Source: Pecten maximus (lineage: Eukaryota). Taken from it: a stretch of 64,000 bases of DNA. Shown one piece after another: positions 16,960 through 34,769 of this stretch. The stretch covers positions 36,208,001 through 36,272,000 of the forward strand of contig NC_047027.1 in the NCBI RefSeq assembly GCF_902652985.1, given 5' to 3'. The notes below the pieces were generated by a model. It did not search any database, was not told the origin of the DNA, and saw only the letters and a list, made by a program, of their open reading frames with translations. Made by a program: the position numbers and the translations under genes. The stretch's first letter is position 1; each line of letters begins with the position of its first letter.

Positions 16960-18447
16960 CTATTTATATTTGAGTATTTTCGTTCTATCGTCCTCGTGTC
17001 TAACCCAGAGGTTACCGTCCTCGAGTAGACTGATATACCATGGTTCCCTTCCATCGGATGTATAAACAGTCCTCATACAGCGTCCAGTATTCCCGTCAAT
17101 CAGTAGTACCGACTTGGTTACAAAGTCCGTTACGAGGATATCACCAGCTCCATCAAAACAAACATCGCCAGGGTAAAACTTTGATGACTGACTGGAACTT
17201 CTGTTTGATGTGGTTGTACCAATGGCTTTACAGAGAAACTTCAGGTTTAGGTGTTTATCCATCACGATGACGTGAGGCTGTTTGTCTGGTGTCTTACCAG
17301 CGATGTAGTTATCATAACCTACACCGTCAGTATCAACAGCAGCTACATCCCCGGTCAGAGAACTAGACGTCATGTGATGAGGAACTACTGCCACCTGTCG
17401 ACAAGGACGGCCCGCTCCAGCTGACACTACCCGGCCGTCTGTAGTGTACAGTTGTATTCCTCCCTTCATCCCCACCACCACCATGTCATCACTAGTGATA
17501 CACAGAGAACGTAGTGTATTGTTAACGTTAAAGCGTGTAACAACGTCACCGCCCGTCGTGATTTCCCGGATACTTCGGTCATCACGAACACAGAACCACA
17601 CCCTACCCGTGGTCGGGGATACGGAGATCGAACTGACTTTGACCTTACACTCGATCGTCTCCTTAACACTGCCTTTTATGTCAACCCGATACACGCTTTC
17701 AGCGTCCCAGTACGATAACCATGCCTCGTCACCAGTAAGACATGTACGACATACATCGTAAAGAAACGACGTCGTAAACTCGGACAACACCACAGGTGTC
17801 GGAATCGGTTTGTACGACTGATCTTCTCCGTCGACGAGTACCTTACCAAGCATGCGTTCCAGAAGTTCGGTGGAGATGGTCCCGGGTTTGAACTCCAAAG
17901 TCTGCAAACGTCGAGGAAAGGGAGGGTCAATTGAGGTATTCCTGATTTCCCGCGCTAATGTAGTGACGGCAACGGTTGTACCGGATGTCAGTACCTGCTG
18001 GCATCTGTCCAGTTTTGGTTCCAGGTCCTCCCTCAGATGTTTGGTTAGTGCAGATCTGTTTTTCTCGGAAACACTTCTATTCAGTTTCTCTAGCTCGGTA
18101 CACATCTTCACTAACAACTCAATGGCATTATCGATGGTGTCTTTCATCTGTTTCCCCTGATGTTTAATGTCACTGATAACTTTCTGATATCCTCCACCGT
18201 TTGTTTCACTTTTACGAATATCCTCCTTGATTTTAGGAATGTCGGATTTGGAAAGCTTGTCAACATACTGCTGTATTTCCCGTTTCTGGTCCGCCACGTA
18301 ATCAGTCAGTTTACCCATCTTGTGACCGAAGTGACTGTCTGTAACACAGTCCATACAAATTAACTCGTCCTCACACGATAAACACACATAAACAAACCCC
18401 ATCCCTTTATGGCGGGGACACCCAGGAACTGGTGTCTGGGCCGCCAT
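16960..18447 (-). CDS. Intronless RING-less TRIM-like protein: B-box type 2, coiled coil, NHL-like six-bladed beta-propeller (copy 1, 495 aa)
   Basis: B-box CPRH-x8-CLSC-x5-CMDC-x4-HFGH. Helical heptad-rich region at ~aa 50-170. C-terminal blades such as SISVSPTTGRVWFC and YPGDVCFDGAGDILVTD. Confidence 0.88.
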   Translation of the reverse strand: MAAQTPVPGCPRHKGMGFVYVCLSCEDELICMDCVTDSHFGHKMGKLTDYVADQKREIQQYVDKLSKSDIPKIKEDIRKSETNGGGYQKVISDIKHQGKQMKDTIDNAIELLVKMCTELEKLNRSVSEKNRSALTKHLREDLEPKLDRCQQVLTSGTTVAVTTLAREIRNTSIDPPFPRRLQTLEFKPGTISTELLERMLGKVLVDGEDQSYKPIPTPVVLSEFTTSFLYDVCRTCLTGDEAWLSYWDAESVYRVDIKGSVKETIECKVKVSSISVSPTTGRVWFCVRDDRSIREITTGGDVVTRFNVNNTLRSLCITSDDMVVVGMKGGIQLYTTDGRVVSAGAGRPCRQVAVVPHHMTSSSLTGDVAAVDTDGVGYDNYIAGKTPDKQPHVIVMDKHLNLKFLCKAIGTTTSNRSSSQSSKFYPGDVCFDGAGDILVTDFVTKSVLLIDGNTGRCMRTVYTSDGREPWYISLLEDGNLWVRHEDDRTKILKYK

Positions 18448-18894
18448 GTCGACAAGGTTAGCTGCTGTCTGTCAATATGGCGGCGATACTTCTCGGGACT
18501 TGAGATAGTCTTCCGGGTAAAGGACAGTATATGTTCTATTTTTAGTTACAGGTGTGTATTATATAAATGGTGTATCAATGTAACTGGATCAAATAGATTT
18601 AAATAAACAGAAACTGGTGTCGGTGTCGTAATGTCGTCTTGGGAATTAGTCGTTTTAAGTCACTATATATCCCCCATCTTTTATTTGTCAACATATTTGT
18701 ATCGACTATTTGTATTTTTTTTCTGAAGGTCGTTTTCCGGGACGGCACGTTCTATTTTAAGGTACAGGTTTGAAATTTAAATTCTCGTTATCTTGTAGCT
18801 CCAGAATTTAACGAATTCAAAACCACTCCATTGTTTGAAACAATTTACCCAGTGGTGTAGCTGGCGTCAAGGGGATTGTACAAGCAGATTAAGT

Positions 18895-19115
18895 AAGAAT
18901 CATCTTAATATTAAACGTGATTTTAACATTTGACATAAAGTAATAATCACTTTAAACATTAAACGTGATTTTAACATTTGACATAAAGTAATAATCACTT
19001 TAAACATTAAACGTGATTTTAACATTTAATATAAAGATTCACCTTTACAATAAACGTGATTTTAACATTTGACATAAAGTAAGAATCACCTTTACATTAA
19101 ACGTGATTTTAACAA
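18895..19115. repeat. ~48-bp tandem repeat, 4-5 copies
   Basis: Unit ATTAAACGTGATTTTAACATTTGACATAAAGTAATAATCACTTTAAAC. Only about one unit survives in duplication units 2 and 3. Confidence 0.85.
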
Positions 19116-33200: not shown

Positions 33201-33281
33201 AAAACACATACACGTGTACACGTATCCACAGCATTTGAAGGACACTGTGCATTGTTCAACACAGGGATATCTGTCTTATGT

Positions 33282-34769
33282 CTATTTGTAATTGAGTATT
33301 TTCGTTCTTCTGTCCGGGTGTCCGACCCAGAGGGTACCGTCCTCGTGTAGACTGATACACCATGGTTCCCTTCCATCGGATGTATAAACAGTCCTCATAC
33401 AGCGTCCAGTATTACCGTCAATCAGCAGTACCGACTTGGTGAAACATTCCGCTACGAGGATATCACCAGCTCCATCAAAACAAACATCGTACGGGTAAAA
33501 CTTTGATGACTGACTGAAACTTCCGTTTGATGTGGTTGTACCAATGTCTTTACAGCGAAACTTCAGGTTTAGTTGTTTATCCATCACGATGACGTGAGGC
33601 TGTTTGTCTGGTGTCTTACCAGCGATGTAGTCATCATAACTTACACCGTCACTATCAACAGCAGCTACATCCCCGGTCAGAGAACTAGACGCCATGTGAT
33701 CAGGAACTACTGCTACCTGTCGACAAGGACCGCCCACTCCAGCTGTCACTGCCCGGCCGTCTGTAGTGTACAGTTGTATTCCTCCCAACATCCCCACCAC
33801 CACCCTGTCATCACTAGTGATACACAGATAACGTGGTGTGTTGTTAACGTTAAAGTGTGTAACGACGTCACCACCCGTCGTGATTTCCCGGATACTTCGG
33901 TCATCTATCACACAGAACCACACCCTACCCGTTGTCGGGGATACAAAGATCGAATCGACTTTGACCTTACACTCGATAGTCTCCTTCACACTGCCTTTTA
34001 TGTCAACCCGATACACTGTTTCAGCGTCCCAGTACGAGAACCATGCCTCGTCACCAGTAAGACATGTACGACATACATCGTAAGGAAACGACGTATTAAA
34101 CTCGGACAGAACCACAGGTGTCGGAATCGGTTTGTACGACTGATCTTCTCCGTTGACGAGTACCTTACCAATCATACGTCCCAGAAGTTCGGTGGAGATG
34201 GTCCCGGGTTTGAACTCCACTGTCTGCAAACATTGAGGAGAGGGAGGGTCAATTGAGGTATTCCTGATTTCCCGCGCTAATGTAGTGACGTCAACGGTTG
34301 TACCGGATGTCAGTACCTGCTGGCATCTGTCCAGTTTTGGCTCCAGGTCCTCCCTCAGATGTTTGGTTAGTGCAGTTTTATTTTTCTCGGAAACAGTTTT
34401 ATTCAGTTTCTCTAGCTCGGTATACATCTTCACTAACAATTCAATGGCGTTATCGATGTTGTCTTTCATCTGTTTCCCCTGACGTTTAATGTCACTGATA
34501 ACTTTCTGATATCCTCCATCATTTGTTTCACTTTTACGAATATCCTCCTTGATTTTAGGAATGTCGGTTCTGGAAAGCTTGTCAACATACTGCTGTATTT
34601 CCCGTTCCTGGTCCGCCACGTAATCAGTCAGTTTACCAATCTTGTGACCGTTGTGACTTTCTGTAACACAGTCCATACAAATTAACTCGTCCTCACACGA
34701 TTTACACACATAAATAAACCCCATCCCTTTATGGCGGGGACACCCAGGAACTGGTGTCTGGACCGCCAT
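33282..34769 (-). CDS. TRIM-like B-box/coiled-coil/NHL-like protein (copy 3, 495 aa)
   Basis: Intact paralog, diverged along its whole length from copies 1 and 2. Confidence 0.88.
   Translation of the reverse strand: MAVQTPVPGCPRHKGMGFIYVCKSCEDELICMDCVTESHNGHKIGKLTDYVADQEREIQQYVDKLSRTDIPKIKEDIRKSETNDGGYQKVISDIKRQGKQMKDNIDNAIELLVKMYTELEKLNKTVSEKNKTALTKHLREDLEPKLDRCQQVLTSGTTVDVTTLAREIRNTSIDPPSPQCLQTVEFKPGTISTELLGRMIGKVLVNGEDQSYKPIPTPVVLSEFNTSFPYDVCRTCLTGDEAWFSYWDAETVYRVDIKGSVKETIECKVKVDSIFVSPTTGRVWFCVIDDRSIREITTGGDVVTHFNVNNTPRYLCITSDDRVVVGMLGGIQLYTTDGRAVTAGVGGPCRQVAVVPDHMASSSLTGDVAAVDSDGVSYDDYIAGKTPDKQPHVIVMDKQLNLKFRCKDIGTTTSNGSFSQSSKFYPYDVCFDGAGDILVAECFTKSVLLIDGNTGRCMRTVYTSDGREPWCISLHEDGTLWVGHPDRRTKILNYK

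Follow-up and report, generated by a model that had tools for sequence, protein, structure and literature searches.

Why should neighbouring gene copies differ most in their protein-coding parts when the non-coding DNA around them is nearly identical? The question is raised by a 64,000-nt stretch of the Pecten maximus genome (hereafter the window; all positions count from its first letter) that carries three tandem copies of a gene for a TRIM-like protein. Each copy is an intact, intronless open reading frame (ORF) of 495 aa on the minus strand: copy 1 at 16960..18447 (codon n ends at 18447-3n+1), copy 2 at 25745..27232 and copy 3 at 33282..34769. By self-BLAST, they belong to a three-unit tandem array (15770..38116) with a period of ~7.5 kb, each unit being made of a 3' flank, the coding sequence (CDS), a 0.5-kb 5' flank, a 2.8-kb upstream block and a 1.5-kb spacer. 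An earlier note, made from the letters alone, had described near-identical flanks beside more diverged genes, and this is what the alignments give: 0.4–2.2% in the non-coding parts (5' 510 nt, 0.39%; upstream 2.8 kb, 0.7–1.2%; 3' 1.19 kb, 0.7–2.2%) vs 3.2%, 6.7% and 6.0% in the CDS of copies 1/2, 1/3 and 2/3. Copy 3 has a CDS ~6% off copies 1 and 2 but flanks only 0.4–1.8% off. Our answer has two parts: the top face of a C-terminal propeller domain is under strong diversifying selection, and the evidence points to gene conversion as a main source of the differences between copies.

The three window copies do not establish selection by themselves. Between copies 1 and 2 there are 31 aa differences, of which 4 are in residues 1–285 and 27 in residues 286–495, exactly as the earlier note had counted, and every loop motif it quoted can be located in the translated copies. 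The asymmetry between the two ends holds for this pair (the N-terminal half of copy 2 is near-identical to that of copy 1) but not for copy 3, which has 23–25 differences from copies 1 and 2 within its first 210 residues. Changes in codons 286–495 of copies 1 and 2 are indeed mostly non-synonymous (32.5 vs 8.5 synonymous), but neutrality predicts the same, and the ratio of non-synonymous to synonymous differences per site (pN/pS) is 1.25 there (Fisher p 0.31); the multi-nucleotide changes, described as frequent, affect just 6 of these codons. Pairwise pN/pS was tried as proof on the window copies and rejected: it is non-significant in every region, the three pairs have whole-gene values of 1.08, 0.89 and 1.05, and none goes above 1.32 in codons 286–495. 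The excess over chance becomes visible when the family is tested site by site.

For that test we used codon site models on the 10 intact copies with at least 87% protein identity (L001–L010), leaving out L011 (frameshift near the C-terminus), L012 (stop codon) and other broken or partial copies, as well as the more distant L013, L014, L016, L017, L019, L022 and L023. The models (F3x4 codon frequencies, branch lengths fixed from M0 and then scaled, naive empirical Bayes) reject an omega (ratio of non-synonymous to synonymous rates) of 1 or below on the family's paralogs, so the test that the earlier note proposed comes out in its favour. Twice the log-likelihood difference (2dlnL) is 203 for M2a vs M1a, with omega2 at 10.4 on ~4% of codons, and 199 for M8 vs M8a. 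The signal sits in the propeller (2dlnL 162.7) and not in the N-terminus (4.6). Using six segment-specific trees brings the statistic to 125, allowing double- and triple-base mutations brings it to 120, and the propeller keeps 54 when site-rate variation and multi-base mutations are both modelled. Ten neutral simulations with heavy recombination gave 2dlnL of 0–30.5, so the observed 162.7 is five times the largest, and they yielded at most 5 residue states per site where 8 are observed.

The selected codons share a location. Twelve have a posterior above 0.95 (248, 272, 288, 313, 328, 355, 427, 442, 468, 470, 485 and 487), and their positions on a predicted structure can be compared with the top face of an NHL propeller, which is formed by the b-to-c and d-to-a loops (PMC4015489). 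All 12 fall within the 67 top-face codons of the propeller's 276 (p 2e-8; the top face has 98 codons if two long insertions are included), spread across the loops of six blades. Some of the variable motifs (CVxD, VxHx) belong to b-to-c loops and not to the P-x-x blade start where the earlier note had put them, but both kinds of position are on the top face. A count that uses no tree agrees: the top face has 0.59 replacement changes per site, the long insertions have 0.21, the core strands 0.18, the N-terminus 0.14 and the bottom 0.12, while the silent rate is 0.33 per silent site. Hypermutation as the cause of the hot codons was considered and rejected: where copies carry the same residue, silent variants are no more frequent at the 12 codons than elsewhere (0.25 vs 0.15–0.27 per codon). 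The 12 positions also vary more than other top-face positions in four of five paralog groups, with Ylistrum, Mizuhopecten and Argopecten represented (p 1.6e-5 to 6e-7).

What kind of protein carries this face? A type 2 B-box occupies aa 10–44 of copy 1 (18316..18420, minus strand) and includes C10, H13, C22, C25, C31, C34, H39 and H42. The PF00643 profile scores it 0.3 bit short of the cut-off in copy 1 (23.8 vs 24.1 bits, E 5e-5) and above the cut-off in copy 2 (24.4) and copy 3 (30.7). A coiled coil with linker helices follows at aa 47–215 (17803..18309, minus strand), defined by DSSP on the AlphaFold model, which assigns long helices to aa 47–170, with those at aa 47–155 taken as the coiled coil. 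A profile of 38 family sequences matches the B-box and coiled coil of TRIM28 (E 1e-8) and TRIM3 (E 8e-7), and the same profile matches the NHL domain of Brat (E 6e-5). Pfam scans of the three ORFs contain no RING, and a RING-like pattern is present in 0 of 118 upstream minus-strand frames of at least 35 aa, a scan that would not reach a distant spliced exon. The open frame extends just 8 codons above the ATG, the B-box begins at residue 10, and full-length homologs in our family alignment (A1) likewise begin at the B-box. Hydropathy gives no membrane segment (no 19-residue window has a mean above 1.4).

The remainder of the protein (aa 220–495 of copy 1; 16963..17790, minus strand) is modelled as a six-bladed NHL-type beta-propeller. 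The AlphaFold model has a mean predicted local distance difference test (pLDDT) score of 77.5, with the propeller mostly at 80–95, and the domain's top Foldseek match is the TRIM2 NHL domain (E 4e-14). VIA-align gives Z 26.3 to TRIM2 NHL (7qrv; root-mean-square deviation 2.8, 246 residues aligned) and Z 26.3–24.4 across TRIM2, TRIM3, Thin, LIN-41, Brat, TRIM71 and Mei-P26, all at 14–17% identity. Designed Pizza6 propellers fall among these matches (Z 25.2–24.6). The earlier note's assignment to the NHL fold thus stands at the level of structure. At the level of profiles, the PF01436 NHL repeat has one weak match in copies 1 and 3 (17.2–17.3 bits vs a cut-off of 20) and none in the Pfam scan of copy 2. 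On the model and its structure matches, the C-terminal domain is a propeller and not a B30.2/PRY-SPRY domain. The family is therefore RING-less and TRIM-NHL-like in architecture and fold: its members are not TRIMs in the strict sense because they have no RING, and not finTRIMs because they have no B30.2.

The coiled coil is predicted to pair. Residues 1–215 are modelled as an antiparallel homodimer with a score of 0.66, vs 0.04 for the best of three controls, and a pLDDT of 86. Runs agree in at least 97% of contacts, with symmetric contacts at 102-102, 94-109/112 and 105-101. In a microbial calibration, 21 of 30 solved homodimers passed the score mark we applied, against 0 of 23 monomers; among eukaryotes, the corresponding counts are 17 of 29 and 0 of 30. 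K102 and M199, both at the predicted dimer centre, are invariant in 38/38 sequences. Such an antiparallel dimer is predicted to present two propellers. On the modelled top face there are also two long insertions, at aa 373–391 and 407–425 of copy 1. The first holds a conserved helix motif (Y381, G384, P387 and P391, 92–95% conserved) and is not hypervariable; in the model, it could serve as a fixed partner site beside the variable face.

Selection explains why changes are kept on one face; the sequences also indicate where the changes come from. Among the three window pairs, fourfold-degenerate sites differ at 8/217, 14/204 and 10/205, and flank sites at 65/6010, 56/4525 and 30/4518 (p 0.004, 1e-6 and 5e-6 for fourfold vs flank), so the silent coding sites are older than the duplication that made the array. 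For 36/47, 72/99 and 69/89 of the coding differences, both alleles are found in at least one of 17 other copies (L021 was dropped from these counts as it is near-identical to L009). The DWPHN loop tract of copy 2 (within 25745..27232, minus strand), which comprises five substitutions, is base-for-base identical to that in L009 (C57) and L021 (C13:35.0 Mb). The copies are thus mosaics: four-gamete incompatibility is 0.20 for sites within 10 nt of each other and grows to 0.32 for those more than 30 nt apart (permutation p 0.0015), and the nearest neighbour of each copy shifts along the gene. A test for long identical runs, positive in 10/190 pairs at p<0.002, is uncorrected and biased by uneven rates, so we use it as support only.

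The regional pattern fits exchange inside the genes. The four copies with matching flanks (the three window copies and L006) diverge from one another by 0.5% in the upstream flank, 2.5% and 7.9% at the fourfold sites of the N-terminus and the propeller, and 2.2% in the downstream flank; when they are compared with eight far copies, these values become 10.2, 8.1, 8.5 and 16.5%. Since propeller divergence is even (~8%) whatever the flanks, the propeller behaves as one family-wide pool, with the flanks tracking duplication. We considered whether donors share only the CDS, which would explain the drop in divergence at the start and stop codons, and this is just partly true: several paralogs share ~336 nt upstream and 690–820 nt downstream. 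Far-copy flanks are 10–16% diverged vs ~8% for the CDS, so exchange looks concentrated in the CDS, and selection keeping the imported tracts is likely needed as well. The simplest reading of these sequence patterns is therefore gene conversion concentrated in the CDS, with selection retaining imported loops. The outcome is diversity at the 12 selected sites: all 20 copies compared have distinct 12-site strings that differ on average at 9.4 of 12 positions, with 4–11 states per site and a net charge from -5 to +6.

The explanation we favour, and consider probable with room for doubt, is that the window genes belong to a variable set of dimeric cytosolic receptors in an arms race with pathogens; the earlier note had suggested a possible immune or antiviral sensor role, which we offer by analogy. 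By the precedent of TRIM5alpha, finTRIM and NLR-B30.2 proteins, the top face of each copy would bind a different, fast-changing foreign ligand—probably a protein, because charge is mixed and aromatics are common at the variable sites. Two binding heads would come from the coiled coil, and contacts between B-boxes would gather dimers on a repetitive target, e.g., a capsid or microbial surface. Because the RING is missing, ubiquitin-ligase activity is not expected; the protein might block its target unaided or bring in a partner that has a RING, leading to ubiquitylation, autophagy or signalling. Fresh specificities would arise by point mutation at the ~12 codons and then be recombined via short conversion tracts, so that a young duplicate could gain a new face quickly. 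A bolder version, which we put forward only tentatively, is that scallops, and perhaps molluscs widely, hold a germline combinatorial repertoire of antibody-like, cytosolic, bivalent, RING-less TRIM dimers directed at intracellular pathogens, with ~2 hypervariable codons per blade recombined by conversion among tens of genes and broken copies.

Several known systems have parts of this design. TRIM5alpha forms a coiled-coil dimer that carries two hypervariable ligand domains and uses its B-box for higher-order assembly; it has a RING and a SPRY domain, is mostly encoded by one or a few genes per species, and takes retroviral capsids as ligand. The scallop proteins resemble it in their predicted coiled-coil dimer with two variable heads and differ in having neither RING nor SPRY. 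Like the finTRIMs, as far as these are described in PMC2657112, they form a large, clustered, lineage-specific expansion with a conserved N-terminal module and positive selection on the recognition surface of a C-terminal ligand domain. However, finTRIMs have a RING and a B30.2 and were discovered as virus-induced transcripts, whereas the scallop genes have an NHL-type propeller and no RING. A clustered expansion with positive selection concentrated on the ligand face, a trait of finTRIM/TRIM5alpha-type antiviral TRIMs, is also what we find in the scallop family. Zebrafish NLR-B30.2 genes, for which PMC4852459 describes positive selection plus family-wide conversion, with the proposal that short tracts recombine substitutions across groups, are alike in their silent-site pattern and in combining selection with conversion in the recognition domain; they differ in being NACHT/LRR proteins of nearly 400 genes, as opposed to ~20 close B-box/coiled-coil/NHL copies in a wider family.

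By fold, the closest matches are the TRIM-NHL proteins (subfamily C/class VII: TRIM2, TRIM3, TRIM71/LIN-41 and Brat, the last of which is not known to have a RING), which share a B-box, a coiled coil and a six-bladed propeller. The scallop family differs from them in its 14–17% identity, its single B-box, the lack of a filamin domain and a hypervariable top face of variable charge. Brat is classed as TRIM-like in PMC3503706, and class VII members are described as developmental regulators, 3–5 per genome, with an electropositive, RNA-binding top face (PMC3503706, PMC4015489). In bivalves, many oyster TRIM-like transcripts are reported, tied to Perkinsus tolerance and up in OsHV-1 and Bonamia studies (PMC9892467), and a B-box orthogroup is expanded (PMC8382680). 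These reports, in the parts available, concern expression or copy counts, and the scallop data concern site-level selection, structure mapping and conversion. Variable propellers of a different family occur in other conflict systems of marine invertebrates (PMC8195603). Bivalve TRIM-like expansions are thus already known, and what appears new is the selection pattern on a mollusc NHL propeller face: we found no literature report of selection or conversion on mollusc B-box/NHL propellers in a search that took in neither subscription papers nor supplements, and nothing relevant in the accessible portions of PMC12373286, PMC10514466 and PMC9334734.

If the face is a recognition surface, what it recognises could be something other than a pathogen protein. 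An RNA reader like Brat or LIN-41, whose variable face tracks the RNA of transposons, selfish elements or RNA viruses, is unlikely. In its favour, the fold matches RNA-binding TRIM-NHL proteins (Z 25–26 to LIN-41, TRIM71 and Brat), Brat binds RNA through the same face that varies here (PMC4015489), no residues are commoner at the 12 sites than Arg and Lys (96/444), which are joined by many aromatics, and four top-loop lysines (K385, K389, K423 and K445) are 84–89% conserved (P0045 left out of the count). Against it, net charge at these sites ranges from -5 to +6 among the 20 copies, Asp and Glu account for 61/444, no top-face arginine is conserved, and up to 11 residue states at a site seems excessive for reading four bases. 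Less probable than this is a within-species conflict over self/non-self or reproduction (gametes, allorecognition, transmissible cancer or germline drive) in place of microbes. Such conflicts likewise yield strong site-wise selection, and Drosophila TRIM-NHL proteins are described as working in the germline, but by hydropathy there is neither a signal peptide-like stretch nor a membrane segment, which makes recognition at the cell surface unlikely; furthermore, there is a large paralog repertoire and not one polymorphic locus, and the same sites vary in four genera. We consider it distinctly improbable that the propellers bind small xenobiotics or algal toxins from filter feeding. Six-bladed propellers can carry top-face ligands or active sites (PAL, PknD; PMC4015489) and king scallops are reported to accumulate algal toxins, but slow-changing toxin chemistry would fit poorly with an omega of ~10, the B-box and coiled coil suggest TRIM-type assembly, and the 12 sites are scattered over the loops of six blades.

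The pattern could also have arisen with no recognition at all. A redundant family might decay neutrally, its unconstrained loops acquiring a semblance of selection from conversion and mutation hot spots; we give this very little credence and regard it as largely refuted. In its favour, whole-gene omega is 0.87, ~40% of sites look neutral, many close copies have stops or frameshifts, recombination inflates the test in simulation, and a neutral model with a 13.7-fold fast class takes up much of the signal. Against it, the fast-class model is still rejected (the 2dlnL of 54 above), silent variants at hot codons are not raised, and simulated recombination reaches at most one fifth of the observed statistic; the bottom loops are equally exposed yet constrained (0.12 vs 0.59 on top), the long top-face insertions are not hypervariable (0.21), and identical sites vary in other genera. 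The least credible option is an assembly artefact, i.e., haplotypes placed in tandem or base errors. The ~1% flank divergence is within the range of scallop allelic variation, some small-contig copies resemble alternate haplotypes (L009 vs L021, 0.7%), and none of the contigs listed crosses a unit junction. But four copies have near-identical 5' flanks, more than two haplotypes allow; the three ORFs are open despite 47–99 substitutions; about three quarters of the differences recur at other loci, copy 2's five-substitution tract being the same in L009/L021; DNA contigs from three runs cover 30/30 bins of 22800–27800 at 97% or more; and the selection result is drawn from 10 loci plus other genera. 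Allele sharing and DNA contigs thus make it unlikely that the variants are errors, an alternative the earlier note had itself raised. A small share of the weight, at the margin, is left for these rivals and for options not listed here.

The arms-race reading has to be held against a number of points that weaken it. Positive selection marks a conflict, not its kind. The three window copies alone have a pN/pS of 0.9–1.1. The site models are our own implementation, with naive empirical Bayes and M0-fixed branch lengths, and 7 of the 10 neutral recombination simulations pass the nominal 5% level, so nominal chi-square p-values are unusable. With six trees, just 7 of the 12 codons keep a posterior above 0.95 (288, 313, 328, 355, 427, 442 and 470), and the margins of the top face were set after the variable sites had been seen. 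In the tree-free count, the top-face silent rate is also high, at 0.56, which we attribute to path-counting inside multi-hit codons. One Argopecten pair failed to replicate the excess at the 12 positions (p 0.065). The predictor may have passed the dimer because solved TRIM coiled coils were already known to it, the oyster 'TRIM2/3-like' transcripts (PMC9892467) may not be homologous to this family, and the RNA evidence is at family level, coming from contigs of four runs, two of which were only guessed to be RNA.

Should the bolder, repertoire version be correct, the NHL propeller, otherwise familiar for the conserved reading of RNA, would play in invertebrates the part that the B30.2/SPRY recognition module plays in vertebrates. 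Molluscs, which have to recognise diverse intracellular pathogens, have no adaptive immunity. The general pattern (expanded TRIMs, a selected ligand face and conversion) is already known in fish and mammals, which limits the surprise; what is added is an NHL propeller that evolves the way immune recognition domains do, apparently diversified in part by gene conversion. The result also suggests a testable role for 'TRIM2/3-like' proteins of the kind whose transcripts recur in disease-tolerant oysters (PMC9892467), names 12 residues for swapping, and offers breeders and immunologists a candidate locus at which copy number and loop haplotypes can be compared with resistance.

The array is one part of a larger family. 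All 44 named entries among 45 protein matches are 'uncharacterized' and come from four scallop genera; the wider family comprises 476 clusters at 50% identity, and its look-alikes in the ESM Atlas are mostly mollusc B-box+NHL clusters. Copy 3 has an exact match in a collection of 15 billion proteins, and the exact proteins of copies 1 and 2 have none there; these two may be unannotated or modelled differently. In the scallop's own genome, we scored 86 of 459 candidates and obtained 109 matches. About 20 copies have at least 88% DNA identity, most of them on C13 at 35–38 Mb, and many of the close copies contain stops or frameshifts. Three further copies (L004, L012 and L006) share the strand of copy 1 and sit 39–62 kb to its left (G000:C13:36158001-36208000, L031-L035); their loci keep parts of the array unit, with a 2.1-kb insertion in the 3' flank of L006, and three inverted copies are near 36.33–36.38 Mb. 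L012 (G000:C13:36171842-36173185) has a stop codon and is missing its first 47 codons in the assembly, yet the database protein P0002 is a full 495 aa and has identical loop residues. Some 'broken' copies may therefore be assembly errors or alleles, which makes the pseudogene counts uncertain. L009 and L021, of which one is intact and the other split, differ by 0.7% across most of the CDS and are probably two haplotypes of one locus.

Family sequences are present in sequencing-run contigs (four runs, two recorded as RNA and two guessed; contigs only). A likely 3' untranslated region of copy 1 (16400..16959, minus strand) is covered by a family-level match at 85% likeness, and contigs also extend over the CDS and a minimum of 21 nt 5' of the ATG, whereas depth is zero at 18712–19381 in 4/4 runs; the family is therefore probably transcribed. 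Copy-specific expression was sought and is not demonstrable, the RNA contigs being short and paralog-mixed, and contig depth cannot rank expression. In run X20, a 3115-nt contig runs without a break beyond position 23026, where the upstream block ends (this corresponds to 38116), and departs from the array there, and in run X12 a loose end at the 23026/38116 junction matches sequence right of 38116. Together these contigs, which can show presence only, are a weak hint, which we do not count as evidence, that the tandem junction is missing in some animals, i.e., that copy number varies.

The array units are not identical in layout. Unit 1 has a 1.2-kb upstream segment (18965..20196) that units 2 and 3 lack; it recurs beside L006 (96%) and at three sites near C13:37.8 Mb (89–92%). 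Bordering this segment is a long palindromic element at 20010–20300, with many genomic repeats and a presence in RNA contigs, which looks like a miniature inverted-repeat transposable element. Two identical 165-nt direct repeats (15058–15487) are ~280 nt from the array's left edge. Minisatellite arrays were found by self-BLAST at 2032–4450, 53146–55257, 56555–57592, 60484–61912 and 63405–64000, and the ORFs at 5042–5416 and 60477–61927 are probably minisatellite translations, not genes. Left of the array, on the same minus strand, are exons of a ZPR1 zinc-finger gene at 7545–7805 and 10873–11196 (PF03367, E 2e-18; PF22794, weak).

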